From assembly GCA_964106915.2 (NCBI GenBank), contig OZ066918.1: DNA of 64,000 nucleotides; one strand, written 5' to 3'. Each line of letters opens with the position of its first letter. Positions within the stretch are counted from its first letter, which is position 1. Origin of the DNA: Podarcis gaigeae. Its lineage: Eukaryota. Positions 23,401 to 60,500 of the stretch are shown here, in pieces. The position numbers and the translations under genes are program-made. The notes below the pieces were generated by a model. That model made no database searches and was not told the origin of the DNA. It saw only the letters and a list, made by a program, of their open reading frames with translations.

Positions 23401-26400
23401 ATCCACATTCTAGTTTCCTATTTTGTGTAGTATAAGGGCTGCTGACTGTAATTGTATTATTAGAGCATAAACTAGCATCTAAGGATTGTAGAAATCAATG
23501 GGACATACGTACTAGGCAAATGGAGGTAAGCACACAGGACTCCAAAGTGCATGTTCTTACAGATGCAGACTTCCACTTGCTTCACTGAGCATTTTAACTC
23601 GTACAGATTCACACAATCTGAAATGCTAAGTAGAAGCTGACACCCTGAGGGCTCAGTAACACATATTTCCTGGAATTGGCAGGGGTTGGAGGAAGGCAGC
23701 ACAACCCAAAGGAGACAGAGAGTGGAACTGAAGGCAAATGGAGCAAAACAGCAAAACAAAACAACTGTACCCACCAACCCAGAGCAGAAGGGTATTCTCT
23801 GGTCTACGCAGGCTAGAACCCAATGTGGCTAAAGACACTTCCCAGTTAAAAGGAGCAAGAATAATATCCAAATGCTGTTCTCTTCTACTGTGTAGCACAG
23901 GAGAATTTATATTGGTCAGATGTTCTACACCTTTGATCTTACCCAAATATAAGGCTGATCTTATTTCACAAGGAGAGAGGCAAAGGCTGAGAAGGATAAA
24001 TTGAAAAACTGGTCCAAGGTGAACTGCTGGAACATAGTTTATAGAATTGCTGTCACATCAGAATGCTTCCTCACATTAAGATGTGTAAAACACATTGTGA
24101 GATTCCCATTTGGTGCATGGGTGGTGCTTTGAAGCTGAAGGTTGCCAACAGAGAAAGCTCTTGGCAGAGAAGACAGATTTTTCTTTCAATCTCTACTGTT
24201 GTGATTGTAGAAGCCGAGAGGCCATTAAACCAGTTTGACTGGAGATTGCTGTGGGTAATCGCTCTTCCCTCTAATCACACAAAAATGAGGAAGTACTAGA
24301 AAGATTTTAGCTTAAAAATATGCAGTGTTGGACATGGCTCCACAGTGGAAAGTATTTAGTAGAGGGTGGTTCTCTGGGTGTTGCTGGACTAGAAGTCCCA
24401 TTATCCTTGGCCATTGGCCATGTTGCCTGGGTCTGATGGGAGGGCCACAGGTTCTCCAATTTAATGGAAACTGTGCTTAATATGAACGATGCAGTGGATA
24501 GGGTTGCCATATTTCAAAAAGTGAAAATCCAGACCGCTTTTTGGGGGCCAAAGTAGTTTTGCCGAAAGAGTTGTTGAACTTTTGGACGCTGCCAACATTG
24601 GTTGCCGTACATTGGGAATTTCCTGGACATTTCACCCAGACACTGCTTCTGGCTGTAGTATTCCGGGTATGTCCTGTAAATTCCAGACATATGGCAACCC
24701 TGCAGTGGATCAGAAATGGATGATGATAAGTATTGATAATAGAATCCTATTCTGCTGGCACAGCTGAGTCATATTTACAATTCAAGCTGCACCTCTTAGT
24801 CATTGGTTCCCATATGGAATCTCTCTCACTCTCTCATTTACCTGGAAGGAAGTGTAGCATGGAAGGTGCTTGTTGTACATGGGTAAAAGTCTGATCTGGT
24901 GCTCCACCCCCTTTTGATTTGGGCTCCACCCGTCACTGGCAGGTGGCCCCTGAATTGCTGCTCATGAGTTAGTGCAGCCTTTGGACTGAGAAAGGTTCCC
25001 CATTTCTGATCTAGACAGAACAAATTTGATAGGTGCCAGTGCTAAAATGTTTGTGGTAAATGAGGGGTAGGGATTCCTTTTGGCCTGGCGGAACAGATCT
25101 TTATTTCCCTCGACTGCATGGGCCAATGTTCGCTGGTGGGCAGGGTCACTCTTGCTGATCAGATGACTGACAGGTAGGCAGGGCCACTCATCTCTCAGAG
25201 TTAATCCATTGAGTGGGAAGAGGGGGGTTCAGCTAGTTGGGGTTCAGTCCTGCTGTCTGCAGGGCTCTACACCCAATGTGACTTACATGTAACAGGATCC
25301 CACTCATAACTCTGGCTATGTATCTAAAAAATACAGTTTCTTTTTCAGAAGGGTATTGACGGGCTTATTTAAATTGCAAGAAAACCTTCAAGCTGTTTTC
25401 TTTGAGCTAGTTCCACTGTGACATTTCGGCTTTACCAGTAAGCTTCAGAAACTCATCCCATGTGTGCAGGTATGTAAAAAAAATATTCTGCCCAAGTGAC
25501 ACAGCATGCATCTGGGTTATCTCATGAGCTGAGGCTGGATATGTGGATAGGATTATTTACCAGCAACTTGTGCATGTGCACAAATCTAACAAATATTTTG
25601 CATTAATTAATGTACCTATAGGATTCATTCTCCAAGCCATTTTGTGGTTGCTTAATATTGCATCAAACCTGGCTTTAGCTTCAGCATCTCACTTCCATAA
25701 GTGATAGATTTTGTTCAAACAGTTAAATCAAGGACCAAGTCTCTGTTCTACTGTACTGGAGAAAGCAGCTCTCTTAACCTCCTTTCATGTCCTGGGATTG
25801 TTCTCTTAAAAGCTTCCTTTTCCAACAGCACTGCATCATCCTCAGTAATTTCTGATTCACTTTGTTCTTGCTTCCCAGTATGGCAGGAGCTTTTAACTTG
25901 CCCTGCAGCCATTTTCCTCCTTTGCTGCAGGCAGAGGGCAGAGCATTTTGCTCTTTTGCAAGTTTTAACNNNNNNNNNNNNNNNNNNNNNNNNNNNNNNN
26001 NNNNNNNNNNNNNNNNNNNNNNNNNNNNNNNNNNNNNNNNNNNNNNNNNNNNNNNNNNNNNNNNNNNNNNNNNNNNNNNNNNNNNNNNNNNNNNNNNNNN
26101 NNNNNNNNNNNNNTTTCCAGAGCATCTGATTTCTTGGATCAGACAGATTATACCAAAAAATCTTCATTGATCAAATAATTACACTATGGTGCTAAATATT
26201 TTATGTGGAAGTTAAATATGTTTGGAGCTTACTCTCACACCAGAATTTTGGCTTCTCAGAGTTAATATGTTAAGGTTCCACCCTAGCACTGAACCTGAAA
26301 CAAATAACCTTTCATATTTATTCCACACATGTGCAAAGTTGCCTTATGGAGTAGTAGTAGTAGTTCATTTTTCCTGTTTACACTTGAGAAAACCAAGTTG

Positions 26401-29400: not shown

Positions 29401-32400
29401 CTCCAACATTTAAGCTTTGCTCAGGGAATTTATTTGCTCTACGTAGGCAGGTTTAGTCATTAAGGCTTATAACTCTGCAAACACCTTACAATTTGAAGTG
29501 ATTGGTCTGCCTTCCCTGTCTTGTGCCTCATTTATGTACAATTTCACTGCCATTGTTCATGCCCATCAACAGAGCTGGTGTTTTCATAAGTTGTATACCA
29601 TTTGAATAAAATGATTGTTTGCTTAAAGTTCCAGGATGAGCTCAGAGAGTTTCGAATCTCTCCCCCACCCTCCCAATCATCTACAGTGGTACCTTGGGTT
29701 AAGAACTTAATTCATTCCAGAGATTCATTCTTAACCTGAAACTGTTCTTAACCTGAGGTACTACTTTAGCTAATGGGCCTCCTCCTGCTGCTGCACTGCC
29801 AGAACATGATTTCTGTTCTCATCCTGAAGCAAAGTTCTTAACCCAAGGTACTATTTCTGGGTTAGTGGAATCTGTAACCTGAAGCGTATGTAACCTGAAT
29901 CATCTGTAACCCGAGGTACCACTGTACCTTTTGGAAAAATTGCCCATTCTTTTGATGGGACAAACTAGAGATATGTCCATACATCTCAAGCTCCATTTTT
30001 CTTTCTGCAAAATTATCTTTTTCCAAGAAGAGATGAAGTATTTATAAATATACTTTCTATGGCAGTTTAGGTTATGCCCGCACTTGCTGTATAGTTGAGG
30101 TCATTGCTTGCTGTGTATATGATTCATGTCAAGCTGGCCAGGTCCACATTGCACACACATTCATCCCTTCATCTACTGAGTATTACCTGTAATAAGGGAA
30201 ATCGTGCCAGTGTATGGTCTATGATGCTGCACAAAGGGTACATATCCATCAGGATCTGTGGTCCTCCAGATGTTATTGGATTCCAACTCCCATCAGCCGC
30301 AGTCAACATAATCTGTGAACATGGATGATGGAAGATATAGTTCAACAACATTTACAGGACCATAGGTTCTGCAATCCTGATCTTTATGGTTTAAATAAAT
30401 TACAGGTGCTAGCTACATTGTGTGTGTCAGTGAATCATGTATATTTGAAACACCATTGAGAAAGCCTGCAAACACCCTGCCCCTTTTTGTGAATTTTGGG
30501 GTCATTCTGGATTTGGCACCATGTGGTTGTGCACATTCATGCACATATTGAACTCATAAATGGGGGGGGGTTGTCTGTATGGTCTTTTAAACCCGAGGGG
30601 TGTATTTTCTGTTATGCTGTATATTTTTGTGTTTTTATATTGTAAACTGCCCTATTATCAGATGATTGGCAATATAGAATTCAAATAAATAAATAAATAA
30701 TAAATCTTGGGCCGAACACTTCCCATGCTGATAACAATAAGTGTTCAAAGCTGCTGTATCTGATGAACTATGGTCATGTTTTCCTTTTCTAATACCCCCT
30801 TTTTTATTTGTGAAATGCTAAATTTCAGGTGGTACAGTTATACACAGAGAAAAGTATGGGAGTGTACAATTGTACAAATCTGTACATAAGCCAGAGTCAC
30901 ACCAACACTACTAAGACACTGGTGCAATCTTATCTATTGTGAATTCCTTTTGTGGTAAACACCTGACTCATCAGATAAGAGTGGGTCAGCTGCAGTTACA
31001 TGGCCCTGAACTGCTTTAGGATTACATGGCAGAAACATCACACAGTTTGACTAATTGGGAGCACTGCTTAAATAATTGGGAGCACCGGGGGTAGCAAACC
31101 TATTGCTGGACTACAGCTCCCATCATTCCTGCTTATTGGCCATGATGATCGGGGCTGTTGGGAGTTGAGATCTAACAACATCTGGAGGTTCAGTGAGCTC
31201 CGCCCCTGGAATGGGATGGAATAACATGGCAAAACAAAAACATACAAAATAAAAAACTATCAGTATAACAAGATTGCTTAAACAACATGCTGCATCCAAT
31301 AGAAAAAGTAAGAAGGGAGTTTCACTGTGGTTCACCTTAGTCCTAGAAGCACTCCTGTCATAATGTTGCTCACAGTCCCTCTCCTGCAGCAGCTTCTGAT
31401 AAGGCTCCCAAAGCCAAAGGGTGGGGTGGGTTCAAGTTAGAGGTTCCAGATAACAGTTGCAGACACAGATTGACAAAGTTTGCTGACTAACAGAAGAAAC
31501 TAGAATATAGTATATAGAATGAAAATGCAAATATTGTAGTGTTCTCTGTTACAATTTGCTATTTTTTGCTCAAATACTCATCCTCTCCTCCTGTTCCAGC
31601 ATATGCTAAGGATTCTTTCTACCAATGCTGAAATAGTTCAGCAAAATGAAATGGAGCGGGGTGGGGCAAGCCCTTTGTTAACATACTGGCAAATAGAAGA
31701 ATGATGTTAAGAAGTGGAGCTCACAAGCCCATGCTTTGCATCAAGATGACTTTTTGGAAGACATTGTTTTCTCCTGCTGAGCTCCCTTCCCTCCCAGGTT
31801 ATGAATCAGATCACACAAAAAGTAAAGTTTGTATAATAAACCAACCAATATCAAAAGGCCAGTTCACATGTGTACATGTGTCATTTGATGATGAAGCTAT
31901 GTGAATGAGCCATCCCAGATAGTACATCAATATGGAAGTTTTCAAAGGGAATCAGTTCACATGTTTGGTTGCAAGTCATCAAGTGATAGAAAAGAATTAA
32001 ATTAGATGTGAACCAGCAAATAAGATTCTTTGGCTCCTTGTTATTGCATGATAATTGGGTTTCATTTAAAAAAAAAATGCTCAATTTCTGTCACTTTCTT
32101 CTCGCAGATCTTGCATTCTAACAGCATTGTCATTGTCACGCTCCTGTGATTCCTTGCAGATTTTTACTACACTCGCATCATAAACAACAATAAACACAAT
32201 TTTCCAGCTGCACCTCTCCAACTGAGCTGAATTTTGAGTGGTATTATTCTTATTTTGACATGGTACCTTCTAACCTCCAAACAGCTGTGACTTCTTTTTA
32301 CAGCAGCCTAGTTAGTAATCAGGAGCAAACAGTGGCATTTTGCAAGGGAGAGAAAACACTGATAAGCCAGAAGTGCCTTTCACCTTCTTCTGCCACAGGC

Positions 32401-36500: not shown

Positions 36501-39500
36501 TTGACCACTGCAAGACGTTTTAGCAGCCATGCCCAGAACTACACTACCCTCCTGCTAGAGGATGAGAAGGGAATTCTTTATGTTGGGGCCAGGGGGGCCA
36601 TATTCTCCTTAAATTCCAGCAACGTTTCTGATGGCTCCCATCGGACAGTAAGTGCAGCTTTATCCCACTGGCATGTTCACAGTTAATTTCCTTTGCAAAT
36701 TTTGGTTTCCAAACCCATTTAGGGCTACATTTGTACCTTCAAGGAAGAACAAGCACAGCTTTCTCTTTATTTAAACTTTAGAATCTGCTTTGATTGGGGA
36801 GGGACCATGGCTTCATGACTGAGTCAGCAAATGGCCAATCAGTGCTGTGCATATCAAATTTCTGCTCTAAAGTAGACTAGATTTCACCCCAAATCTTATT
36901 GCATATGTGTAAAATACGTGATGAGTGCATTTCCACAGCAGACTCATTGCTGGAATAATGTATGCCTGCATGCAGCCTTTGTTGCATTAGAGTCACCAAG
37001 AGATACACTGAAAACAATCTGCTCTGAAAAACTGATAAATGCCTCCTCATTAAAAATGGATGCATCTGTCATCAAATCTAGTTTCCACAACAGATATAGA
37101 CAGATATGGACCCTTTTGTCTGCCTCCCATGTTAGTGGAATGGGCTGGGGCCAACCCTCACTGGTAGCCAATGGGTTCCTGAACTACAGCTCCCACCATC
37201 CTTGACCATTGGTCATACTGGCTGGGGCTGCTGGGAGTTAGAGTCTTAACAACACCTTGAGGGCACCATATTGGTTGCCCTTGCTGAAGTACACAAAGGT
37301 CCTTTAAAGTACCTGGAAGTCTCTGGTGCCTCTTACCAGGATTAACATTTGTTCACTCTCCTTTGAGGCCCTTTATCTCAGTACAGTTTCTTTTCTGTGC
37401 CCTTGTTTTTTATGCAAAATGGGAAGGGAGCTCTCGAGCCATGTAAAAATGAAAACAGCAGCCACCCTCTACTGAAAACCACTTGCTTTTTTGGTCTCCT
37501 TCCCTCTCCCTTTCTCCCTGCTGCTTCCTTATGGTATTTGTAACAGCCAGGTTCTCATTTCAGTCAAGGACCTTTAAAAGCAAATGGGCTACAAACATCT
37601 GCAGCGCTCCCCCGCTTTGCACTTAAATAAATCCACTTATTCTGGGGGAAGGCGAAGTGTGAACTTTGAAGAGCTCTTGTGAGTTTCACGGGGCTTGCTT
37701 CTTAATGTCACGCTCCACCACTATTTCCTGGGCTGGGATGCCCCAGTGAATAATGATCCTGCTTTGTGTTTAACTTTGTAGATTGATTGGGAAGCCTCTC
37801 CTGAGAAGCGGGGAGACTGCCTGAAAAAGGGCAAAAACAACAAGGTATGTGCTCCATAAGTCTCTGCCTTTTTGTCTCTGTTCCTTCACTTCTGACCTGT
37901 TTGTGCCTGTAGCTGATGAACAGGCCATTGTCAGGACTCTTGTGCAAATGACACCCTCCCTTCCTCTTTTGCAGACAGAGTGTTACAACCATGTCAAGCT
38001 TTTGCAACGGCTGAACACAACCCACCTGTATGCCTGTGGCACATATGCCTTCCACCCGCTCTGCACATACATTGTGAGTAAAAGAAGCAAAAGAATCTCC
38101 TCCACTGCCTTGTTGGGAGTCCCTCTTTGCACTGAAACTGACTGCCAGGGAGATGTCCGCCATGCCCTTTGTTTCCAGAAGCTGTGCAATATTATTAGCC
38201 AGTCAGAAACCAACTGAAAATCACTCAGATTAACTTTTCTGCACATGGAACTGGTTGTAGACGAACTCTATAGGCAGGTATCCAGGACAACAAACCAATC
38301 CCAAATCCTGGCTCCTGTGTCAGTAATTCCTGCCAAGGAACGGAAAGGTCATGAAGACCAGAACTGATTTTTACTGCCTGCCAGAAGGAGGGAGGTCTGT
38401 GGGGAGGCTCTCTCTTCCTGGTGTTTTGTTCTCCAAGGCTGGCTGTTGATTTCTGGGAAGCCTAAGAACCTGGACTGATGCTTTAAGGTGCCTTGCCCAT
38501 GGGTTTGCTAACATACTGTCTGCATAAAGAACTAAAGGAAAAGGCCAACCTCACCATTAGGCAATGAGAGAACCATCTCAGGTGGCCTAGTGTGGGGGCA
38601 CTGATTATTTATTTATTTATTAAATTTCTATATTAGTTTTTAATATATAATCATACAAATTTCTATGACAGCAGCCCCTTCCCCCTGTTCCCCTCTGTGG
38701 AGGACAGAACTGTGTGTGCCCTGTGCCAGCCTGGAAATAAGATTCAACTGTCATTCGACTCTGCTTCTCTACATGGGAGGGGGGTGGCAACTTGTCTTTC
38801 ATCATAGGCAGACCCTGAGAAGCATAAGCATGCATTTCTTTCACTCCTTTAAATTCACATTCAATGTGTTAACATTGGGATGCTTTCCTGCTGTTTGCCA
38901 TAGTGAATAGAATATTGGACTGGAACCTGGGAAATCGGGTGGAATTCTGCATTGCACTCTTCCAGTTGTTTCATCTGTGCAAGCTTTGCTAATGACAACT
39001 GCCCCCCCCCCCCCGCGTGCTGCTGTGGGGGTTCTCCAGACCCAGAGTCAATTGGGGGGCACATGGAGGGAGGTGGGGGAGAAAGCCCTGTTGTGCAAGC
39101 AGAAGTCCTTGCACAGGGCTTCCACTTATAGTGCTGGTTAGGTGACTCCTGCCCCAGGGTTAAAATCCCTACTCAGCCATGTGGTTCATGAATGATCTTG
39201 GGAAGTCACTCTTTCACAGATGGACTACCTGGTGGCATTGTTGTGAGGGGTTAAAGGTCACCTTGGGCTCCTTGTATACACCATCCTGAGCTCCTTGGTG
39301 GGAGGGTAAGAATACACACTTGCACTAGATACACATTCATACTAGAAATACAATAGAAAATCATCATCAGTGTAAGCTAGGCTGGATACACAAAGGAGCT
39401 TTGATAAGCAAGCCATTTAAAGAGCTTTGCAGGCAATTTGGGGTGATAATGGAGGTGTTATTATGAAGCTGTTTCTCAGTTAGCAGAACCCATCTTTCCT

Positions 39501-42500
39501 GAAGCATTTGTTTTTGTTGCAAGGTAATGGTTCTTTAGGGAAACATGTGGCGCTGTGGTCTAAACCAGGTGGCGCTGTGGTCTAAACCATTGAGCTTTGG
39601 GAGCGCCGCAACCCCAGAGTCATTTGTGACTGGACTTAACTGTCAGGGGTCCTTTACCTTTTTTAATGGTTCTTGATGTATGTTCAGACCCAAACGCACA
39701 CACAGCTTTGGAGCTGTATGATGGACCTCCTCCTCCTGCCTCCCTTTTTTGGATTTGGGGCAAGATGGGACTTTAGTAAAAAGTGTCTGCAGTTTGTTAA
39801 TTTGTGTACAAGCCTCTCATTTTACGAAGGCAGACATTAATAAAAGGAAAGCAATAAAAAAGAGCAGAGGGGCAAACTGTACCCTTTCGGTGATGGCAAT
39901 GCCTCCTACCTGAGGCACATCGTCGCAACTAGTGATGTATGTGGGGAGAACCTTGTCAGTTTAGGCAACTCACCATTTATTCTGATGATCGAGGACTTTA
40001 AACTCATACTTCTGCTCTGTTGCCAATACTGCAAGTGACTTATTTGAACTTTCCTCTACCACCCAGTAGTGTTTCCTGCATCATGCTTAAAGCAGCAGAG
40101 TCAAAAAGCTAAGGCTTACTATTTTGTTCCAAAACTAATTGTTGGAGCCAACCTAGTGCAATTTCACTTTCCAGGGCTAGACCACCAATAGGAGAATGTC
40201 CAGGTTTGGCTTTGCCAATGATTGTCCCCCCCCAAAGTTTATTTTTTATTTAATTATTGATTCTCGTGCCACACTTAACAATGCAATCCTTTGTAAGTTT
40301 GCTCAGAACAAAGTCTCATACAGATCAATGCTGCTCACTCCTAAGTAAATTTATTTAAGGATGCAACCTTAGAATTCCAATAATGCAGCAGGTAGCTATT
40401 ATTGTGATGTTTTGAGTGTTAGGGTCAAAGATCACAAAGCAAGTATGTAGTCTTTTGTCATTGACACCAACACATGATATTTTAGATAAATTTGTCAAAT
40501 AATAATTGAACATCTCTCTGGGAAATAAAGTGTTAGCTCTTCCAGAGTTAAAGAGTGGCCATATTTTCAGGAAGAGAGATTATAAAACCAGTGGCATCAA
40601 CTATTGGTCATGCTGGACAAAGAACATTGTGATTGATTCTGTAGTCTAATTTGGCCGTTCTGCAGAGAGCATTCCACCTTTAGATTGATCACATTGGCTA
40701 GAGAACCTCTCTGCACTAGTTCCTCAGCATGTTTATGAGGATGTCAGAGTCCCACCAGCCCTCATTCTTCGAAACATGTTGCTCCCCAGAGTCGCAGCAG
40801 TCATAGAAACAAGGAGGTAACATCCTTCATTGAACTAATCGTCTATACTGGCTAACAAAGGTGCTGTTCCCCCTCCCCCCTCAATTTGCAGCCTCTAGAT
40901 ACCTGCCACCTGTTCAAACAGTCATTTAGATGGATCATCTTCTATTTTAATAACATTTTCTATAATCCAGAGCTTGCCCTGGACAGCCTCATCTATCTTG
41001 TGCTCATTTTTGTGCCTTGCCACATTTCTGCATGCCATTTTTAGCTTCACTGCCCAATTGCCTCTCTTCCTGCATCTCTGTGTAAAATACACTTGGGTTA
41101 GAACCAGTTACAGTGGCGCTACCCCAGCCTCAGCTTAAACTGTGATACATGTGTGACCTTTGATAGCTTCTTCAAAGTACCTGGGCTTTGTGAAGCTTGT
41201 CCCAGAGGTCTCCTTTCCAAAGCAAGCCAGGCAGCTTGAAAGAGAACACATTGATAGCATTAGCCTCATCTCTGCCTAACTAAAGGCTTAAATCCATCAG
41301 TTAGGGTTGAAAATCTGCTCTGGCCAAGACATTTTCCACACAAGCTGCCTCCTTTTTATATCCATTATCTCTGAATCACACCCAAAGCCTACCTGTTCTG
41401 ATACTGATTGGGCCATAAGAGGCTCCTGAAGGATAGCTACCCTCACAGACTTTGCTGTTTAGCAGCCCCTTCATCCACCTCTTCTTTATTTTTCTTTGCT
41501 TTGCCAGTAGAATTGTTCACTTTTTAAAAAAGCCATCAGTACCATCCATCACTGATGGTTTAATAATTTCCTCTGTGCCACCCCCCCCCCCGAGCACGGG
41601 TTTTCTTTATAATACCTGTTCTCAAAACTGTTAAAGAATTCCCTGCATTCCTGCTCTTTTCTTTACAAACAAACCCTCCACAAGTGCCTGGTGCTCTCAT
41701 CTGAGCACCCTCCAATGCATTAGTCTCCTGCTGGAAATAAGTTGTTTGGAAAAGAGCCCAGCATTTTTGACTGATCTATGGATTCTATGAACAGCAGGAA
41801 AAGGTGCCATTTGTTAGCCAGCAGCAGGTTCTGCTACTCTCTGCTGTTGGAATGCTGCAATCAACTACAGTCCTCTTTATCTTTTGCTATCTACCTCGCT
41901 TTTCAAAAAATATCAAATGGTGACCAACAGAGAAGCAAAAATAAAATAAAAATTAACTCTAACAAGAAAACAACGTAAGAGAAAACCAAAACAGCAGCAA
42001 AATGTAAAGCCAGTGGGAAGACCAAAAAGAAAGAAAACCCAGTAACAACATTAGATCCAGACTGATGCTAAAACACACACAAACACAGTCTGTCAAAACC
42101 TGGAGGTCTTCATGGACTGGTGAAAGGCAAGAAGTTCTACGTGCTCACCTGCCTTATCTTGGGTCAGCGCTAAGCTGAGGCTCAGAGTTCAGCATCTATA
42201 TATTGGGATCCATGTTTGTATAGACTACTCTCCCAGGTTAGTTTGCACTTTGAACTGCACACCACACCCAGAGCCAAGAATTATAGCTTAATCAGAATTC
42301 TATCCAAGAAATGGTCCTGCTTCTTTTAGCTAAAAGTTCAGATCCAACTGACTGAAGCTACTGAATCACTAAAAAATGAAATAAGAAGATTTGGACCTGA
42401 TCCCTGGCTTGTTTTGTACAACAGAGGGCTACCCTACAAATGGAAAATTGAACAGGATCTCCTCCAAAGACTGGTGAAATTGAGCAGGTTCAGGTGGGAG

Positions 42501-48500: not shown

Positions 48501-51500
48501 GCCTGAGGCTTCAGTTGCATCTTGGAAGGAGAACAGTCTTATCCGGAATACACAAGCTCCCTTGGCATTGTGCTCTGATCGCTGGGTTTTGTCACTAGGG
48601 GGGGGGAGAGGAGGGGAGGGGTGATCAAGCCTCTCTCAATCCTCCTCCAAACACTGGTCTTGCTGTGTTTGACTCACAGGGAGGCAGAAACACTTGCTTT
48701 CAGAAAGATCAGCCCAGATTAGTTACCCTATTATAGCACTGAGAGATGTTCAGGGGGCTCGTTTTACAGTAATTTTGAAAAAGTATTGAGCCTTTCCTAG
48801 AGTGAACTAAGTTGTTAATCCTGGTTTGTTAATAGGTGGTTGTTTTCAGACGCTATAAGCAGACCCATGTAGTTCCCAAATGATGTTCATTTAAATGGTT
48901 TTGATTTAAATGTTTAGTAGCTGCTGATCTGTTTCAGTAAAGCTCCAACTGAAGATGAGTCAGAGCCATCCTAGAAGATCTTGGTCCCAGCTTGGACCAA
49001 AACCAACATTAGTGCAGAACATTCTGTTTATATATAGAATTCCCCTTGTTTATGCCCACAGTTTCCACAGGGGTAGACCTCTTGCAGCAAAACCAACAAA
49101 GAGCCTTGAGGCACATCAAAGACAAACACATTTATTATGACATAAGCTTTTGTGGACCTATAGTCCGCTTCATAAAATATATGAAGCCGAACATAGTCCA
49201 TGAAAACTTGTGCCATAATAAAATAGTTGGTCTTCAAGGAGCCACAAAACTATTGATTGTTCATTTGTGCTTCCCTCCCCCACTGTCCTTGGGCTTTTCA
49301 TGCATGGTGAAACTGTTCAGATGGGACCTTTCCATTGTATTGGAATCAGAGTTGGCCTTGTGCTTGGCTTTGCCTAACAGATATAAACTGAATTGGGACT
49401 TGGCTTTAGCCTCTGCCTCTCTTTCTTTTTCTGCATTCCAGAATGATATTGGTGGCAAGAAGATTCTCCAGAGGAAATGGACATCCTTCATGAAAGCAAG
49501 GTTGGCCTGCTATGTTCCTTACTATGAGGTACTGAAGGATGTTTTCAGTCTGGATGGTGGCGACTGGAGGAGCACCGTCTTCTATGCAACATTCACTTTA
49601 TCAGCACAGTGGTAAGCCAAGCACGCTAACGGCGTGTTGGGTACTCAAGTAACTGTAACCGTTCCGAAAAGATACATGGAGTCCATTGAATTACACAAGT
49701 TCCATGTGCTGCCACCAGCAAAAAAGACAAACTAAATGCTAGGGATTATTAGGTAATGGTACAGAACACAGCGCAGGACGTGTCACGGTACCCTTGAGTA
49801 CTGAATGTGGTTCTCAATCTCCTGCCTGCTGCATTGCAGAACTTGACTTGCAGTATGGTGCAGGACACACACACACACAAAAACAGATAGGCTGTTTAAG
49901 CAAGGGAACCTGGCCTTGCACATTTCAGCATTCCAGGGAGCATCTGCATTCACTTGGGCAAATTGGTTCAGTCTCTGTATTCCAAGGCAACAGGTATGGA
50001 TTCACCCCACTTCAGTGCCTGTTGTGGCACAATCCAAACATATGCCACACTGTTCAAAGCCTCATAAAAGACACCAAAGGAAAGTCAACTTGCACTGAAT
50101 GGAAAGAATGCTATTGTCAGTTGGTCCTCAGAGTAAAGAGGCTTTCAGCTGCTAAGACTGTGCTGGCTCTGCTAGTACCACCTGCTATATTCTCAGATAC
50201 CTTTGCCCTCTGCTTCTGAGTGAGGCAGGAGGCTTGCCCCTCTGTTTCCAAGGCTGGCCTGCCTGTGCTTTTAAGCTGGACGGGGTCCACTGATGCTTTC
50301 ATCCCACCTGAGCTCCAGTCAGTGGTGTGATGGTAGATGGAGGCTTTCAGTTTGGTTGCCAGCAAAATCCTCCTTGCCCTTGTAAGTATTTTGGCACTTG
50401 TGACTGATTCAGTTTGCCTGAGCGTTTCTTGCTGAGGGCAAGGAACAGATGGGACACTCTGAGCACTTTGTGAGACAAAAGTCCTATTGGTGAGCATCCG
50501 TAGAATAGATTAATAATAGCTGCTTATGCAGGAGGTGGTGTGGGATGAGAAGGGGAGTCAGCTTAGCATTTTGGAAGGGCTCACTTTGGCTTAATTGGGA
50601 GCAAGGGCCAAACTGTTCGCCATACGGATTTTAACCACAGCAATAAGCACTGTGCGACTTCACTGTGGACTGAGCCTAGTCTGAAGTCATAGCCAGCCTT
50701 TTGCATTTTCCTGTTAGTTTTTAGTGGTAGCATGAATTTTAACAAGTTGTCCTCGGCTAATTAGTAGCTTTGTGCTTGTAACATTTATCAAGTGGAAGGT
50801 TCACACTGGCAGCAAGATGGCACCCACTGAGCTACCATCCTCATGAGAGGGTAGCGGAACATCAGAGGCATTTATTAATGAGCACTGGCCGTTACATCTC
50901 AAAGGCTATTGAGAACGTACAGGGTATTTTGCATGTGGCCTTTTCGGGGATGTCAGGGGAATGGTTAAAGAGACAGAACTGGGGCAGAAGTGGCAGCTGG
51001 TTGTTGTTATTATGTGACGATGAAGGAAAACCAGGGGGCTTTGCAGGGCTGACAGTCTTCCCCACAGAATGACAGGAAATGAGGAAACCTCCAGGATTAC
51101 ACAGGAATATCCTGCTCGTGACAGAAAGTCATTTGACTCATTTGTCACAGAAGCAAAAGCTACCACTTACTCGGAATCTATTCTCTTGATCTGGCTTTGC
51201 ACTGAAAAGAATTTCAGAGAGCAGAGTGCGTAAAGGAGACCACTGCCAAACCCAGGGAGGAGTGCATAACTAAGAACTCACCATACAGCACAAAGCCCAG
51301 CAGGAGAAGCAAGCATTTGCAAGCATCAGCATGAATTAACACTACAGGGATAAAGGAGTCCAGTTGGAGATGGCCCAAAATATTTTGGTGTTTGAGAATG
51401 AAGATATAAATGTTGCTACTGTGACAGCAATTTGCTGTTGTTTAATGGTACCTCCAAAATCTGCTGCCTGGGGCAGGTGGACTTCACCCTGTCTAGTGGT

Positions 51501-54500
51501 GAATCCAGACCCCCCCCCCAAGTCCAGTATCTCTCATGCAGATAGGCCACACAGGTGCAAGGTAACGTTTTCCAAATACTGGCTGGAAGTTCATGGAGGG
51601 ATAGCAGGAAGACAGACGCAATGATAGCCAGTAAGTGGTAGCAAGGACAGGTGTGATATATATATTGATATATATATATATATTTGCTTTCGTAGATTTT
51701 CACGGGTACAGGAATGCAGGTTTTGGTGTCCTCGGGTGTCTTCCCGTGTAAAAGTTGGGGTGTCTAGGCGACGTTTCGACGAGGTCTCACTCGTCATCTT
51801 CAGGCTGGTGCTTTCGGCTTCTTGTTACTGGAACAGAGCGGGATCTCAATGTTTGAGTTCCTATAAATACTGTAGAGGGGGTGTGGTGTCTAGCCTCCAA
51901 TGTTCTGGGCAGAGAGGAAGTTCCCAGGCTAGTGTGCCTTTTCTTCTTTTGTTCCTTAATTACTTGAGAGATACCTTGAGTGATTTCTTGAGTGATATCC
52001 TGAGTACCACTTAGGTGGGTCATTAGGTGTGGATTAGTTGCTAAAGTCTTTGTGTCTTGACCTCTTGAACTTTGTGAAGAGTTTTCCTGAGAAGATGGCT
52101 GTATTGCACTTAGTTGTGCTTTGGCTTGGCTTCGTGTATAGGGGCGAGCTGTGGTTTTGTGGCTTGTGTCAGCCAGATCTGTGTAGGGATTGCAGGGGGG
52201 TGCAGCATCCGGTGCCCAGCCACGTACATTGGACAAACAAACAGACGAATAAATGCACGTATCGCAGAACACAAGAATGCCGTCAAAAAAGAAGAAAAAA
52301 CTTCCTCTCTTTTCCAACACATGAAAGAAACAGGACACGAAATTAATTTTGCAGATTCCAAATTGCTCTTTAACACGGAACATCACCACAAGAGAATAAT
52401 CATGGAAGCCATCGAGATAGAGAAACACCCTCACAACATGAACAAGCGTGACGACACATCCCGCTTGCCAGACATCTGGAAATTAGCCCTCCCCACAAAA
52501 ACTGACACCAGATCCAGAGGCACACAGAACGCCAACACCAATCAACCACACCAGACCCAAACCCAGACCCTCTCCACAGATGAATTACTGACACCATCCA
52601 GTAGCCAATCCATGGTGGCACCTCCGGATGCTGCACCCCCCTGCAATCCCTACACAGATCTGGCTGACACAAGCCACAAAACCACAGCTCGCCCCTATAC
52701 ACGAAGCCAAGCCAAAGCACAACTAAGTGCAATACAGCCATCTTCTCAGGAAAACTCTTCACAAAGTTCAAGAGGTCAAGACACAAAGACTTTAGCAACT
52801 AATCCACACCTAATGACCCACCTAAGTGGTACTCAGGATATCACTCAAGAAATCACTCAAGGTATCTCTCAAGTAATTAAGGAACAAAAGAAGAAAAGGC
52901 ACACTAGCCTGGGAACTTCCTCTCTGCCCAGAACATTGGAGGCTAGACACCACACCCCCTCTACAGTATTTATAGGAACTCAAACATTGAGATCCCGCTC
53001 TGTTCCAGTAACAAGAAGCCGAAAGCACCAGCCTGAAGATGACGAGTGAGACCTCGTCGAAACGTCGCCTAGACACCCCAACTTTTACACGGGAAGACAC
53101 CCGAGGACACCAAAACCTGCATATATATATATATATATATATTTCATAAAATGTATACATCACTAGATTATTGAAAGAAAAAAAAATACTCAAAGCGGTT
53201 TATAGAGAGAATAAAACAATGCTGGGGATACAGCTGCAAAGAGAGGGCAGGGACCCTGAGAGAGTCTTGTTCAGATACAGAATACCAGGACTGGCTCCAG
53301 GTTTTAAAGCCAGAGTGCCAGCTGGCAGGCCCCAGCAGACCTACTCGGCAGTGGCAATGGGGTAGCATGTACCAGGCAGCACCACTGCAATGCAGTGCTG
53401 AGCAGCTGGGCCCATAATGATTCAGAGCAGTGCTGCATTGGGGGGCATTGCAGAAAATTTTAAATAGCAGCTCAGATACAGCCTCCCAACAAAGGGGTGG
53501 GGGTGGGAGGCATAAGCATAGCTGGGGGAAATTCTGCTGGCGCTCCAGCAGCTGCGCCAGCCTTCTGCATAGGGAACTCAAGTGAGCCACTTCATCTTGG
53601 TGCAGGGACTGATTACTCTTCCAAGCTCCGCCTGGCAGCAGAGAGTGAAAGGGATTAAAGGTCCCTGTCACTCGGACCTTTGCACAGTTTATGGCACCAG
53701 AGCTTTTGGCTGCCTCAAGCAAAGGTTCTCAGAGGCAAGTGGAGTCTTGGGTAGTGGATGACAGTGCCTTGCTGGCCAGATGCACAGGAGGACAGAACAA
53801 CTGCGCTTTTAACTGTTGAGTAGAAGAGGGAAATTCAGGAGGTGTAGCTGCTGAAACTCCCTCTTCCATACAACCATTAAACTTACAGGAGCCCCATCCT
53901 CTTGTGGATCTGGACACTCCAGATCTATAGTGAGGTATATAAGAACTGTTTGTACCATCAGCTGCTCATGCTTTTTAAAATAACTTGTTCAATTACTTTT
54001 AATATAAATGTGTAAAACATTTTAAAACTTTTACATATGCGTGTTTCTCTATATCCACTCCGGTCACCTAGCAGGTACTCACTCTGAATAGCTTCTTTTG
54101 TTCTCCCTTACCAAAGGCTGCTAGTCTGGCTCCACTGACATTCTGCCAAAACAGAGTGGGGGTCAGCAACCTTTTTCAGCAGTGGGCAGGTCCACTGTCC
54201 CTCAGACCATGTGGTGGGCCAGACTATATTTTGAAAAAATATATATATGAATGAATTCCTATGCCCCACAAATAACCCAGAGATGCATTTTAAATAAAAG
54301 CACACATTCTGCTCATATAAAAACACGCTGATTCCCAGACCGTCCGCGGGCCGGATTGAGAAGGCGATTGGGCCGCATCCAGCCCACGGGCCTTAGGTTG
54401 TCTACCCCTGCATTAGAAAGTTCTAGGTATAGTCCCTATAAAGTGGCAGTGCCTGGGCAGCCAACTGCTTGAGAAAAAGGTTGCTAGAATGCTGCCTTAC

Positions 54501-57500
54501 TGGTAGAAACAACTGCTGCTAACTGCTAGACTTAAGAACCCTGTAGTCATGACCTAACTCTCCACAGCCAAGATAGATTTTGCAGCTGATCTTGTGGCCT
54601 TTTTTTTTTTAAGTCTACTGCCTGTCCCTGAAACAAGAAATGTTTTCTGCAGAGAAGGGCAGGCATGCTTCATTCACGGGCCAGGTTTTATCCAATCTTA
54701 GGCTCTATCTAATCCGTTTATCTGGAATGGGAGAATAGTTTTCCTGTAAGTCAAGTGTGCTGGTGACGATACCCAGGATTTATCGCATTCTCCTCCAACA
54801 TGCAGTGTCATAGACTTTGTTGAGCCATCTGGGTTTAGTTCATGAAACCTGTTCCCTATTGGTCAAACCAGATGATCTTCAGATTCCTTGTGGCCCTATA
54901 GTGCTACAAGGATCGTTTTATGTTGAGGGTGGGGAGCATGTGGCTCTCCCATCATTTCTGCCCACTGACCATGCTGCTTGGGGCTGATGGGAGTTAAAGA
55001 GTACAGCAATATCTGGAGCACCACAGGTTTCCCATGCCTGGTTTCTGTGAACCCAGAGGAATTAGCAAGAAGTGGAAGGCTCTGGTCCTGTGCTATGACC
55101 ATGTCACCATGCCTTTCAGGAGGAGCATAGAGGTGTCTGCCATCTGCCGGTACAACATCTCTGAAGTGCGGGCAGCCTTCGAAGGGACTTACATGGAATA
55201 CCAGGACTCCTCCCGCAAGTGGTCCCAGTACACCGGGGAGGTGCCAGTGCCCCGGCCAGGATCAGTAAGTTACTTACCCAACTTAATAGCCCTTAAACAT
55301 CATTGATAATATTCTATTTAAGTCAGTTCGGAATAATGGCTGGCTTTTAGTTTTTGAACCTGAGTTTTGTTGGGTTGGTGCTGGAGGTTTTAATCAGTGT
55401 CAGACTTTATGGCTGGATTTTATCTACTGCTGTGTTGGTTTTTCTGATTTATAGTTTTGCTGTTCATTTTAATTTTATTTATTTGTCTGGCTGCATGTCA
55501 CCTAGAGAACAGTTTTTTATTAGGTGACTCATGCACAGAATAGCATAAATAAATAAATAATATCTTACTTTGCCTCTTGTCTCAGATAAAGGAGGCGGGA
55601 GGCACTCTCTTCCACCCAAGGAACACAAGAGTGCTCATAACTAAAATAGACTAATATGCACCATTTCATACTGAGGGTGAAGGTTGAGGGCTCCCCTACC
55701 CCCAAAAAATCCATACCAGCAGAAAAGTAGATGCTCCAATTAGGCTTTTCACAGGCATTCTAGGTTTGAGTTGCATGTAGGGTTGTGTTCAGTCTCTTAC
55801 CTGCAGATTGAAATACAACAAGCCTGTCAACTGGTGTATCAGAAGGGGTATTTGTTTATATGCTTTAGCTGTTAGAGCAGGGGTGGAGAACCTGTGGTCC
55901 TCCAGCTGTTGTTGGACCCCAGCTTCCATCAGTCTCAGCTAGCATGGCCAAAGGTCAAGGATAATGGGAGCTGAAGACCAGAAGCATCTTGAAGCTAGGT
56001 GTGCAAATAACACCCATTTCTCCTCTGCAGTGCATCACCAGTCGGGCTCGCAAGAATGGCTACAACACCTCCCAGGACCTGCCCAATGGTGTGCTGGATT
56101 TTATCAAGCTCCATCCACTGATGCATGAAGAGGTGAAGCCTGCGGATGGAGTCCCCCTGTTGGTGAAGAAAAATGCGGTTTATACCCAAGTAGCTGTAGA
56201 CAGAGTCGGAGCCCTGGATGGGCGAGTGTATGACATGCTCTTCTTGGGAACGGGTAGGTGTGTTTGCATTCCCCGTGCATATCTAAGTGTCTGTGTGTCC
56301 TCATCTGTTAGGACAGAACACACATCTAGGGAGGTTACTTGTTGTTCTCACCCCTCTCAACCTTGTATCGGAATGTAGAGGAGACAAAGAGTGCAACCCT
56401 ATTATGCTTTCTAAGCCTTCCAAACCTGTGTAGCTGAATCTGTGGTGTTTTTTTTAAATGAGAAACAGTTGGGGTTTCTGTATGCTGCAGAGCTTCCCTT
56501 TTCCTAAGCTGTTCCAGTGCCACTCAGTTCTAATTGACAGCTGCAAACAGACATACCTGTAAACAGGTATGGTTGCTTTCCTCCCCCCCCCCCCCCAGGT
56601 CATCCTTGCTTTTTCTGGCTTTTGCTCTTCAAAGGACACAGAGAATCAAAGGTTGATTATCTGTTCTTCTTTGCCCCTTTTCCGTCACTTAGGCAGGCTT
56701 TGTGGGTTTTTGTCTCTCTCAAACATAAAAGGTTATATTCCTCTTAAGTTCTACTCCAAGTGATGCTTTTTTGATGACAAAACCCCAGCATCAAATCAGT
56801 TCTGGAAAATTGCTCTGAGAAAGGGAGTGATGGTTTCATGATTGCCAGTGAAGTTCCACTATAGAACTTGGGCAGTTACAACTTTGTGCCTGTTTAGAAT
56901 TCAGTTGAACTCCTCTCAGAACTACAAATCCCATTATTCTGGGGAGAGGAAAAGAACAGGAAAAGAAGTGACAAAACTGTTGTCCTGCAGCATAGACTGG
57001 CTCTACAGTGTTCAGGCACACTTAGGCTTCTTGTAAATCTGGAAGTAGACAGATCCTCTCACTTGCCACCCAGACCCTACACAGGGCTAGCACCTTGAAT
57101 TTTGCCTGCATGACTGATGTCAAGAATGAGACTGTGTTCGAAATTGCCTTTTTAATGTTTACTCCCCTTTAACAGGTAATGGCTGGATTCACAAGGCTGT
57201 GGTCATTGGTTCCATGGTCCACATCATCGAGGAGATCCAGGTCTTCAAAGCCCCCCAGCCTGTGGAGAACCTTGTCATCTCTAAAAAGCAGGTACATGTG
57301 GCTTCAGACCCCACCCAAATGCTCTTGGTGAAGGCACACATGCACTGTGAAAAAGCAAAGCACCAACAAGGGTGCAGTAAACAAATGTTGGGAACAGGCC
57401 TATGTCAGCTGGAGAACCAATTCAGGATAGTCTGGACTTCATTGCTAACCTATGTCCTGCACACTTCTCTCTACCAAAGTTGTAAGATAGTCACCTTTTT

Positions 57501-60500
57501 TTCATACCACTGTAACAGGAAAGAACTATCCATATTAGCAAACGCTCTGTCAAGGTGTGGTTCCCCTTTACACCTTTCACCTTGGAAGGAAAAAGAATCA
57601 TAAGCTTGTGGAACGTGGGTGGTGTTTTTCTTATGTATTCTGATTCTGTGCAGTCTCTGCCAATAGGCAGCCCTCAATAAAACTGTGCCTTGAGGGTGTT
57701 TATTTGGCTTTGCCTGTAGCTAAGGTGGTTCCCACCCAGTGTCCAAAGGCCCTGTCATGCGCTGTCCTGCCTCGTTAGAGCCCTTTGCTCAGCAGTCTGG
57801 AGCTTGTTCCTCCACATTCCTTGCAAAGCTGCACAAGTTTAAAAGCTTCCCTTTCCAGCTCCCAGGAAGGACTGCCATTTTTTGTGACTTAACAGATTCA
57901 ATTCTGTATGCATAATTTGCATGCCGCCTTTTCACCATCCAAACCATGCTCAAGGCGGCTTATGACATAAATTCAGCATAACGAAAGAAGTCATAAATAA
58001 ACAAAACATCAAAAAATACACAACCAAGCTGAACAATTTCCACATAAATCACAAGGTCTAAAATAAAGATACACAAAAATCAACAGCAACAACCCCCCCC
58101 CCCAGCAACAAAACACCCCAGCCCAAGAGTCTGTTCAGCAGCCTCAACTGATCCAGACCCCACCCTCACAGGCCAGGTGGGAAAAGGCTTGCAAGGCAGG
58201 GAGCAGGTCTTCCAGCCAATATGCTTTGTGACTCTATGATGACAAGCAGGAGGGGGGAAAATCACTAGATTAGAACCTCCATCCTAGCAAATGCTGCATC
58301 TGTTGAATTCTTCAGTTCCCGTCAGGCAAAACAGCAGCAGCCCTATTTGTAGCTCAGTCCCTAGTTCCTTTCTCAGTGTGACAGTGAAGGTTTATGCCTC
58401 CCTGGTACAGCTGTCAGGGGAACTTGTGTGATGTACTGCAGGTGGGATGATATTTTAGTACTATAATATGTGCAGTCATGTGTGGTTCTGCAGGCTCCTC
58501 TGGATCTTGTTAAGACTACAATTCCCATCATCCTTGACCACTGACCGTGTGCTGGGGGTCACAGGAGTTGCAGTGCAGCTACATATGGAGGGTACCACAT
58601 GGGCTAACACCCTTCCTGCTTTCTCTTTGGGCTCTTTTTCTAGGACTGCCACTTTTTTGTTTTTTACTGGCTCTGCCCCAGTTCCTTGCATTAACCATCA
58701 GCCAGACATGCAAATATTTAGTTGGTTGTGTTTTTCCTGGCTTGGAGATAAAAAGGGTGGAGAAAGCTTAGCCAGGCAAACGCCTGCATGTCATGCTGCT
58801 GTTAAAGGGAAATAATGTAGATGGGACTCAAGGAGGGACTTTTCCTGGCCTTTGTTCTTTCTCTTTCATTTCAAGCATCTCCCTCCGAGCGGTCAGCGGG
58901 GAATGCAACTCTGCCCTCAGACTTTTTTTGATGTTAGGGTGGCTTTGGAGAGGCAGCAAATCTACGCACCAGGTGATGAACACGTACAGCAGTAGGATAG
59001 CCTTGAGCTGGGAAGGATAAATGGCTGCAGGGTGACCCCAGTGACTTACTCTGGTTCCCTGCTTCCCTCTGCTGGTCAAACACTGGTGCTGAAGCTACCT
59101 GTTACCAACACATGATATTGAATGTACCAGCTATAGCTGAGCCCAGCTTCTATAAAAATCCTGGCTTCCAGTTCTGCCTTTTAAGTCATTCCAAGGTATG
59201 GTCTGAAAGCCACCACTTTGCTGAAGTGAAGCAGGTCTAGTCAGCACCTGGAAGAGTGGCTACCTGGGAACAATGTATTTGCCACCTTAGGTTCCATGGC
59301 AGAAGAAAGGCAAGATATGAATGTAAGAAAAATAATACCGTGTTTTTCCGTGTATAAGATGCCCCCATGTATAAAACACTCCCTATTTTAGGGAACTCCA
59401 AATTAAGATAACACCCCTCAGCACTACCCATGTATAAGACGAGCCCCAATTTTAAACCTCATTTTTTGGTTAAAAAACATAGTCTTCTACATGGAAAAAT
59501 ACAGTAATTAACCTGGGCCTTGAAGCATTGCACCTTACATTGCCTTTCAACAGTTAATTGGATGTTTCAGTTCCCTGCCTTTGCATCTCTGCTGAGTGCA
59601 TGTCCTGTTTTTCCTCTCTTTGCAGAGGAGTCTGTATGTGGGGGCTCAGAGTGGAATTCTGCAGTTACCATTTTCCTCCTGCAAGCGCTATGTCTCCTGC
59701 TTTGATTGTATTCTGGCCCGAGACCCATACTGTGGCTGGGATGGCGAGACCTGCAGAGAAGTAGCCGAGATGCTGGACAGGTAATTGAAAACTGACTACA
59801 AAGACCTGGAAGTTTATATAACACTGTGTACCTGTTACAGTAGTACCTTGGGTTAAGAACGTAATTCTTTCTGGAGGTCTGTTCTTAACCTGAAACTGTT
59901 CTTAACCTGAGGTACCAGTTTAGCTAATGGAGCCTCTCACTGCTGCCGCGCTGCCGGAGCATGATTTCTGTTCTCATCCTGAAGCAAAGTTCTTAATCTG
60001 AGGTACTATTTCTGGGTTAGCAGAGTCTGTAACCTGAAGCGTCTGTAACCTGAGATACCACTGTACTTGCATGTGGAGTATACTTGTGCACAAACTGGAG
60101 CAGGGCGATACTTTTGAACCTACCCTGTTCATTCCTCAAATGCTGGATATTTGGTTGTTGTTTTTAAACAACTTCCCATTGGGTGTGTTTGTCCGACTAA
60201 GGCAGCCAATATGTGAGCTCCTGCTGGAACTCCACATGACTGGGACACCAAGTTGCCTGGATGTCCCAGTCAGGCAGATGCCCTGCAGGCAAGGAGGAGC
60301 TCATACACTGACCATGCTCAATGCAGCTATTGAAGAAAAGAAGACTTGAGGTGGGTTAAACATGTGCTCCCCACTCTGGTCTGTACTCAGGCATGTCCTA
60401 CATATGAGTAATGCATGCATACAGCTTGCATCCAAGACCAATGTTCGCCAATACTTGGTGAAGCCAGGGCTCTGTTAAGGCACCACTAATGTGCTTCTGC

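Follow-up and report, generated by a model that had tools for sequence, protein, structure and literature searches.

Results

A Perfect Inverted Repeat in an Intron of SEMA4G

The window, by which we mean the whole 64-kb stretch of DNA analyzed here, contains a semaphorin gene. Its last exon is 98% identical to Podarcis muralis semaphorin-4G (P0154), which agrees with the lizard host named in the original prediction and indicates Podarcis or a near lacertid relative; the next match is 86% identical (the search gave 502 matches at E ≤ 1e-20, and this second-best identity is the one found among the 120 matches listed). By tblastn, P0154 maps onto the + strand as 14 coding blocks. One exon mapping was filtered by typical exon sizes, and tblastn of P0154 confirmed the exons independently. 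An inserted unit of 1439 bp lies between the eighth and the ninth coding blocks, so that its assignment to SEMA4G intron 8 is correct when coding exons only are counted. This intron is 5508 nt long. The donor lies 2072 nt away from the insertion and the acceptor 1997 nt, no exon is enclosed by the inverted repeat that it carries, and SEMA4G is collinear across the insertion site. The main features are as follows:

49442..49611, + strand: SEMA4G coding exon 8, upstream of the host intron (tblastn of P0154; AG/GT boundaries)
51656..51683, no strand: left target tract, (AT)5, TG, (AT)8
51684..51713, − strand: “tail” of the Penelope-like element (PLE), 30 nt, confined to the inverted arm; extends the N-terminal frame of the element
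51714..52212, − strand: left arm, an inverted, 5′-truncated copy of the element 3′ end (complementary to the right arm at 499/499 positions)
52624..53122, + strand: right arm, a direct copy of the element 3′ end (ends at +84, or at +82 when the terminal AT is counted as target)
53123..53142, no strand: right target tract, (AT)10
55120..55264, + strand: SEMA4G coding exon 9, downstream of the host intron (tblastn of P0154, 97.9%)

The two arms are separated by a spacer of 411 nt and are complementary over their entire length, with no mismatch and no indel, as had been claimed; the approximately 141 identical encoded residues are likewise recovered by tblastn (141/141, on the opposite strand). 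Such a repeat is far beyond chance. The other inverted pairs in the window are far weaker, the second longest of 13 being 86 nt at 73% identity. TA tracts adjoin both ends of the unit, as first described, with the left one broken by TG. Up to 16 bp of (AT)8 could be a TSD, indistinguishable from the microsatellite itself. The anatomy of the arms also bears out a 5′ truncation with an inverted terminal copy. The predicted extent of the unit (51684-53122) coincides with ours, but the 30 nt of one-sided element sequence at its left end had been left undescribed. Along with this tail, the original prediction missed the hammerhead in each arm and the ORF that spans the whole terminal repeat, and it is these features that we consider below.

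The Insertion Is a Remnant of a Penelope/Poseidon Element

Starting from 52213, one frame of the + strand is open for 278 codons. It consists of two parts:

52213..52491, + strand: GIY-YIG endonuclease remnant, 93 codons, truncated between the two Cys of CxxC (91/93 identity to P0001; fold model)
52492..53049, + strand: C-terminal extension, S/T/Q/P-rich, 185 codons plus stop; this ORF spans the whole terminal repeat

The spacer had been described as a GIY-YIG fragment of 411 bp. This holds for 279 nt (the 93 codons of endonuclease, EN), and the remainder is the start of the C-terminal extension. The GIY half and the first Cys are absent from the remnant. Taken alone, the window fragment has no Pfam GIY-YIG match. 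Its sole, sub-threshold Pfam match is ORC_WH_C, which we reject given the fold search and the homologues.

When longer proteins were searched with the element, three of 1376 candidates matched. The best of them is P. muralis LOC144326219 (P0001), a gene model with both RT and GIY-YIG domains, so an RT-bearing relative exists, as had been expected. Its identity to the window element is 91/93 residues in the EN and 98/112 in the extension. The RT domain of P0001 (RVT_1, E = 4e-16; DKG at 76, YVDD at 306) precedes the EN in the ORF, and the GIY-YIG domain scores 19.8 bits, under the Pfam cut-off of 22.6. P0001 has the CCHH residues, with CxxC at 505-508 and His at 527 and 543. The window remnant lost the first Cys by truncation and keeps the other Cys as well as the two His; these retained residues hardly vary in an alignment (A2) of the remnant with 67 of 150 listed relatives, picked for covering it. 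These relatives come from a profile-library search with the remnant that gave 1821 proteins at E ≤ 0.001, and 27 of the 68 aligned rows match the Pfam GIY-YIG family (PF01541) at E ≤ 0.01. The termini of P0001 appear to be gene-model additions.

The predicted structure of the remnant (pLDDT 90.8) points in the same direction. Its best structural match is I-TevI (Z 8.1, rmsd 2.4, 76 aligned), followed by T4 EndoII and UvrC, and I-TevI is the sole chain above Z 5 among the 48161 compared. Foldseek also places I-TevI on top, but at E = 7.2, with nothing at E ≤ 0.001. A PDB sequence search with alignment A2 returned two non-significant ZNF593 rows only, and there is no PLE structure among the four PDB sequence matches of P0001.

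We assign the family, on domain criteria read from sequence, to the Penelope/Poseidon clade. An extra zinc-finger-like motif between RT and EN is described as a trait of Neptune and Nematis (PMC8557442); P0001 has a single Cys between YVDD and the EN and so is without this linker motif. Naiad and Chlamys, which have an N-terminal EN and no canonical hammerhead, are rejected: P0001 has its EN on the C-terminal side of the RT, and the element carries a hammerhead motif. By identity and anatomy, then, the unit is almost certainly a 5′-truncated Penelope/Poseidon retroelement that landed in an AT tract in the middle of a SEMA4G intron, and the Penelope-like nature first proposed for it is well borne out. 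No RT match was found in the 64-kb window. Without RT, the SEMA4G copy cannot move by itself; it was dead on arrival.

Two Reading Frames Overlap inside a Hammerhead Motif

Each arm carries a hammerhead motif near its outer end, and a new reading frame begins within it:

51768..51805, − strand: minimal type I hammerhead, antisense copy (core pattern matched at 51803)
53031..53068, + strand: minimal type I hammerhead motif (full core; positions labelled by hand; predicted cut after 53066)
53039..53122, + strand: start of the next unit's ORF; the A of ATG is ribozyme A9; overlaps the end of the upstream ORF by 11 nt in another frame

The core pattern occurs only twice in the 64-kb window, once per arm. 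The motif has an extra U after A9, a G10.1-C11.1 pair, a helix II of 6 bp, palindromic 15-16 positions and a helix I of 2 bp. Helix II appears in the predicted fold, with unremarkable fold z-scores (−0.7 to −1.4), and an Rfam scan of 51500-53300 at E ≤ 10 gave seven chance-level matches, none of them a hammerhead. The predicted assignment rests on the core pattern together with published descriptions. Metazoan PLE hammerheads share these core features (Cervera and De la Pena 2014, PMC4209133): a full core, an extra base between positions 9 and 10.1, G10.1-C11.1, a long helix II and palindromic 15.2-16.2 positions. The same paper describes a helix I of 2 bp, as here, for a D. virilis variant versus 4-5 bp in Schistosoma, and pairs of opposite-strand hammerheads a few hundred bp apart; the two motifs here are about 1.2 kb apart. 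Minimal PLE ribozymes are reported to be inactive as monomers (PMC4209133), and the two copies here are mutually antisense and hence cannot form a dimer in cis.

The closest well-studied system is PAc (Poseidon_Ac) of Anolis carolinensis (Frangieh et al. 2024, PMC11167929), whose ribozyme is described as needing protein. PAc and the element here have in common a C-terminal GIY-YIG EN, an AT-rich target, and a hammerhead in which A9 doubles as the first base of the start codon. The predicted ribozyme cut is at +28 here and at +29 in PAc by hand count. Helix I has 2 bp here versus 3 bp in PAc (PMC11167929), and in a hand comparison both helix I pairs differ between the two elements on both sides with pairing kept. 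Unlike PAc, the SEMA4G copy is truncated and inverted.

A second difference concerns the sequence upstream of the ATG. PAc has a 126-nt UTR there (PMC11167929), whereas the element here has no UTR and its ORF continues for 185 codons past the EN, ending at a stop inside ribozyme helix II, with 11 nt of overlap with the frame of the next ATG. Across the extension there are no stops in frame, versus 10 in each of the other two frames, and only 12 of 20000 dinucleotide shuffles of the extension are stop-free. An identical C-terminal heptapeptide is found in P0004 (96/103 identical) and in P0008 (45% identical); the N-terminal part of P0004 we take to be TSNAX. An Atlas search of the extension gave no usable match, from which neither absence nor novelty follows, and the element's N-terminal peptide (a 41-residue region) found no homologue in a protein search, a weak test. 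In the literature searched, we found no published description of an all-coding PLE terminal repeat. Its presence in a relative that is 45% identical points to selection on the C-terminal extension.

The Two Ends of the Unit Differ by a 30-nt Tail

Nothing matching the tail at 51684-51713 occurs at the right end or anywhere else in the window. The direct arm in its present state was therefore not the template of the inverted arm. The element ATG is at 53039 and its mirror copy at 51797. Counted from this ATG, the right end lies at +84 (or +82) and the left end, formed by the tail, at +114. The terminal repeat thus carries the ATG and 28 codons, and 38 codons with the tail, which extends that ORF in frame.

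These positions can be compared with those of PAc, whose RT initiates at +111..+118 and whose tail spans the interval between two such starts (PMC11167929). Counted by hand on the published template, the last 22 nt of the tail agree with PAc +96..+117 at 15 positions and need no gap, and the tail end at +114 aligns with PAc +117, inside this RT start window.

In its general form the insertion is ordinary, since inverted truncated PLE copies with tails are the usual footprint of these elements, and squamate genomes carry PLEs. An inverted truncated copy with a one-sided tail of 30-40 bp is described as the typical PLE structure (PMC3846280, PMC8557442); Pen2/Pen2a of Adineta vaga (PMC3846280) and the elements of PMC8557442 show the same inverted 5′-truncated copy at the 5′ end, forming inverted repeats. 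A tail of 30-31 nt at one end and a microsatellite or AT-rich target belong to this architecture as they do here. Compared with it, the SEMA4G copy is without a full ORF, an upstream direct pLTR or a perfect junction palindrome.

The Insertion Is Recent

The absence of any difference between the arms over 499 bp gives a 95% upper bound on age of 1.5 Myr at 2e-9 per site per year (the rate published for P. muralis is 1.98e-9; PMC8760935), or 1.0 to 3.0 Myr for rates of 3e-9 to 1e-9. Conversion between the arms would relax this bound. The CpG observed/expected ratio is 0.52 in the insertion versus 0.21 in the flanks (Fisher p = 0.002), a level that points to “not ancient” only. The insertion is therefore recent on an evolutionary scale, with an age bound of about 1.5 Myr. 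The original description, “very young”, is overstated beyond that bound, and the retained CpGs it invoked are indeed less depleted than the flanks without saying more than that the copy is not ancient.

No identical intact master was found among protein records. The nearest records differ in the extension at 14/112 and 7/103 residues; the former is the closest RT-bearing record, P0001, which is a close relative but not an identical master.

A Model for the Inversion

How could one end of the unit acquire an inverted copy with a tail that the other end does not have? The inner ends of the inversion offer a clue:

52213..52232, + strand: inversion junction, inner left; imperfect complement of 52605-52620
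52605..52620, + strand: inversion junction, inner right; partner of the imperfect complementarity

We compared the pairing at this junction with 3000 random position pairs in the unit. The junction energy was reached by 57, 30, 66, 13, 15 and 53 of them for lengths of 8, 12, 16, 20, 24 and 30 nt, respectively, i.e., in 0.4-2.2% of trials. A sliding scan ranks the junction site best or tied best at 20 and 24 nt only; at 12 nt it is outdone by 4 other loci of the unit and at 16 nt by 6. Between this pairing and the final join there is a shift of 2-3 nt, and direct microhomology in the final register amounts to at most 1 nt.

PAc is reported to cleave and extend both strands, to prefer AT-rich DNA, to be a predicted dimer and to have two internal RT starts (PMC11167929). 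It is tempting to hypothesize that the SEMA4G copy arose by two-ended priming. The element's GIY-YIG endonuclease would open the AT tract on both strands, and the resulting 3′ ends would serve as primers for reverse transcription of element RNA, each from one of the two adjacent internal start sites. On the bottom strand, a start at +84 would yield a cDNA of about 910 nt that reaches into the endonuclease and supplies the spacer and the right arm. On the top strand, a start at +114 would yield a cDNA of about 530 nt, the left arm. The two cDNAs, of the same polarity, would then meet at the imperfect self-complementary patch (52213-52232 with 52605-52620), and joining with a 3-nt slip followed by fill-in would leave two head-to-head copies, of which a single one bears the 30-nt tail. 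We lean slightly toward this mechanism, which we infer from one locus; in the literature searched, we found no such proposal for PLE inversions.

A related reaction is known for L1. In L1 twin priming, primers from both target strands lead to a 5′ inversion that is joined at short complementarity, as would be the case here. The second L1 primer starts internally and thereby inverts unique sequence. Both starts here, in contrast, would lie near the same 3′ site, giving an inverted duplication.

The same junction complementarity is compatible with a unit made from one cDNA, which would start at +114, run to 52213, fold at 52605-52620 and copy itself with the tail included, the EN later trimming the tail from the direct end. 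Identical arms are what one molecule is expected to give, and the ingredients have been published, self-priming on an antisense template as an explanation of the inversion (PMC3846280) and EN-mediated resolution as an explanation of the tail (PMC8557442). However, a single cDNA that starts at +84 and folds back cannot supply the tail, so fold-back needs a later removal of 30 nt from the direct end, an extra step that must also be precise. For PAc, moreover, RT initiates in vitro at either boundary of the tail, and extension takes place on both strands (PMC11167929), and the junction here has no perfect palindrome, unlike the rotifer cases (PMC3846280). We consider fold-back unlikely, if well short of negligible. 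It is a good deal less probable that the inversion already existed in a head-to-head source locus and that the insertion is a retro-copy or a DNA-level copy of that rearranged locus. Complex units, tandem as well as inverted, are known to be mobilised by PLEs, as is even host sequence enclosed by terminal repeats (PMC3846280), but RT would have to cross a perfect duplex of 499 bp, and both ends of the unit lie at the positions expected for RT starts.

Complex PLE structures are also known to trouble assemblies (PMC8557442), and perfectly identical arms are what an assembly or library fold-back artefact would produce. Such a fold-back would mirror the host flank too, and the outer flanks differ beyond the TA tracts. 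The in-frame element tail of 30 nt has no other copy in the window from which it could derive, and the gene is collinear across the site. An artefact is therefore extremely improbable. Returning to two-ended priming, we think that the locus as a whole is probably best explained as a dead-on-arrival Penelope/Poseidon insertion made in this way and near-neutral to SEMA4G.

If true, two-ended priming would provide one mechanism for both the inverted “pLTR” and the one-sided tail, which PMC8557442 still describes as unexplained; how tandem and inverted repeats form and why there is a microsatellite bias are problems that the same paper calls open. For PAc, two RT start sites and extension of both strands have been demonstrated, with later steps left unvalidated (PMC11167929). 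The value of the SEMA4G locus is that of a clean specimen, with one end at each expected site and a non-random complementarity at the junction. Two-ended priming makes a prediction that can be counted genome-wide, and the specimen suggests a count able to separate it from fold-back. A bolder proposal is that the locus records the complete PLE insertion reaction, with both strands primed at two internal RT starts and same-sense cDNAs joined at a self-complementary patch, and that a squamate lineage has an all-coding terminal repeat that allows translational coupling between tandem units. In this full form we put the proposal forward tentatively, with more doubt than confidence.

Possible Consequences for SEMA4G

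Once transcribed into SEMA4G pre-mRNA, the two arms probably form a 499-bp duplex with the ribozyme hidden in it. In the predicted RNA fold, they are paired completely (−1123.6 kcal/mol) with the sense ribozyme inside, in accord with the perfect hairpin of about 0.5 kb that had been foreseen. The predicted duplex contains 259 adenosines and may undergo A-to-I editing during the lifetime of the intron. Both ADAR editing and siRNA production, by analogy with other systems, are plausible and would be unsurprising, the editing being generic. In human introns, editing is heaviest at inverted Alu pairs with a few hundred nt between them (PMC526178), and in Drosophila, inverted Penelope copies gave siRNAs matching the inverted regions (PMC3681739).

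Could the hairpin regulate SEMA4G, by way of splicing or premature cleavage at the ribozyme or at an AATAAA, or be the main source of endo-siRNAs silencing the family? The perfect duplex with its many adenosines and the human and Drosophila precedents speak for such a role, and the pyrimidine tract of the exon 9 acceptor is rather interrupted. However, the insertion is about 2 kb from either splice site and encloses no exon, and a crude scan for pyrimidine content and consensus matches detected neither an acceptor of at least 78% pyrimidines nor a consensus donor inside it. An altered splicing of exons 8 and 9, as originally suggested, is thus unlikely. Intronic duplexes, moreover, are normally nuclear and short-lived. 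As for cleavage, helix I of the motif is only 2 bp, the motif is paired with the upstream arm, and the properties of minimal PLE ribozymes and of the PAc ribozyme noted above argue against activity here. Altogether we regard a regulatory role as very unlikely, and the net effect on SEMA4G is likely close to neutral. If such an effect existed, it would join those of other intronic inverted repeats, such as the inverted Alu pairs, and the value of the locus lies instead in the mechanistic specimen and the all-coding repeat.

At the DNA level, the cruciforms that had been suggested are unlikely with a spacer of 411 nt, as judged from yeast data. For inverted Alus in yeast, a spacer of only 9 bp cut breakage by 80% and fork pausing was lost (PMC8053094). 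Widely spaced repeats are described as interacting mainly in long single-stranded regions (PMC10164571), and fold-back, by analogy, may occur in single-stranded DNA at this locus. The loop of the hairpin also contains a potential processing signal, recognized by its hexamer sequence only and one of three in this intron:

52248..52253, + strand: AATAAA hexamer in the loop, sense to SEMA4G

Element ORF and terminal repeat

The terminal repeat of the Penelope-type element is spanned entirely by the element's own ORF, whose closing part occupies 52492-53049 of the window; its stop codon lies within the hammerhead motif, and its end overlaps the ATG of the next unit by 11 nt. The C-terminal extension that follows the GIY-YIG endonuclease has a length of 185 residues. 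This arrangement, with the ORF running through the repeat, is common to P0004 and P0008, two database proteins related to the element ORF. Within the arms there is a 12-nt tandem repeat (3.6-3.9 copies; 51959-52005 and 52831-52877), which preserves the frame of the extension because its unit is a multiple of three.

Penelope-type fragments in host gene models

The host gene models P0002 and P0004 contain fused fragments of related Penelope-type ORFs: an endonuclease fragment is found at the end of P0002, a snake ACOT12 model, and the extension at the end of P0004, a TSNAX-like model. These pieces may reflect exonisation or errors of gene prediction. A SEMA4G model of Varanus komodoensis (P0164, 1052 amino acids) carries a reverse transcriptase domain (PF00078), which suggests that an unrelated retroelement has been merged into it.

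Other repeats in the window

As a candidate for cruciform or hairpin formation, the Penelope-type repeat is far surpassed by a near-perfect palindrome at 4190-4339 (73-nt arms, 90% complementary, 4-nt loop), which may be a MITE or a hairpin resembling a pre-miRNA. Members of an old dispersed family share 65-83% identity within the window, and several lie inside SEMA4G introns, where they could form weaker RNA duplexes.

Copies of the old dispersed repeat family (both orientations across the family)
13549-13649
17918-18018
24368-24444
30253-30353
31090-31166
37163-37239
55889-55989

Another dispersed repeat of approximately 217 bp, probably a non-autonomous DNA transposon, occurs twice (29682-29898 and 59836-60053; 88-89% identity). 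Finally, a perfect 22-nt tandem duplication (39547-39589) heads a sequence similar to a squamate SINE.
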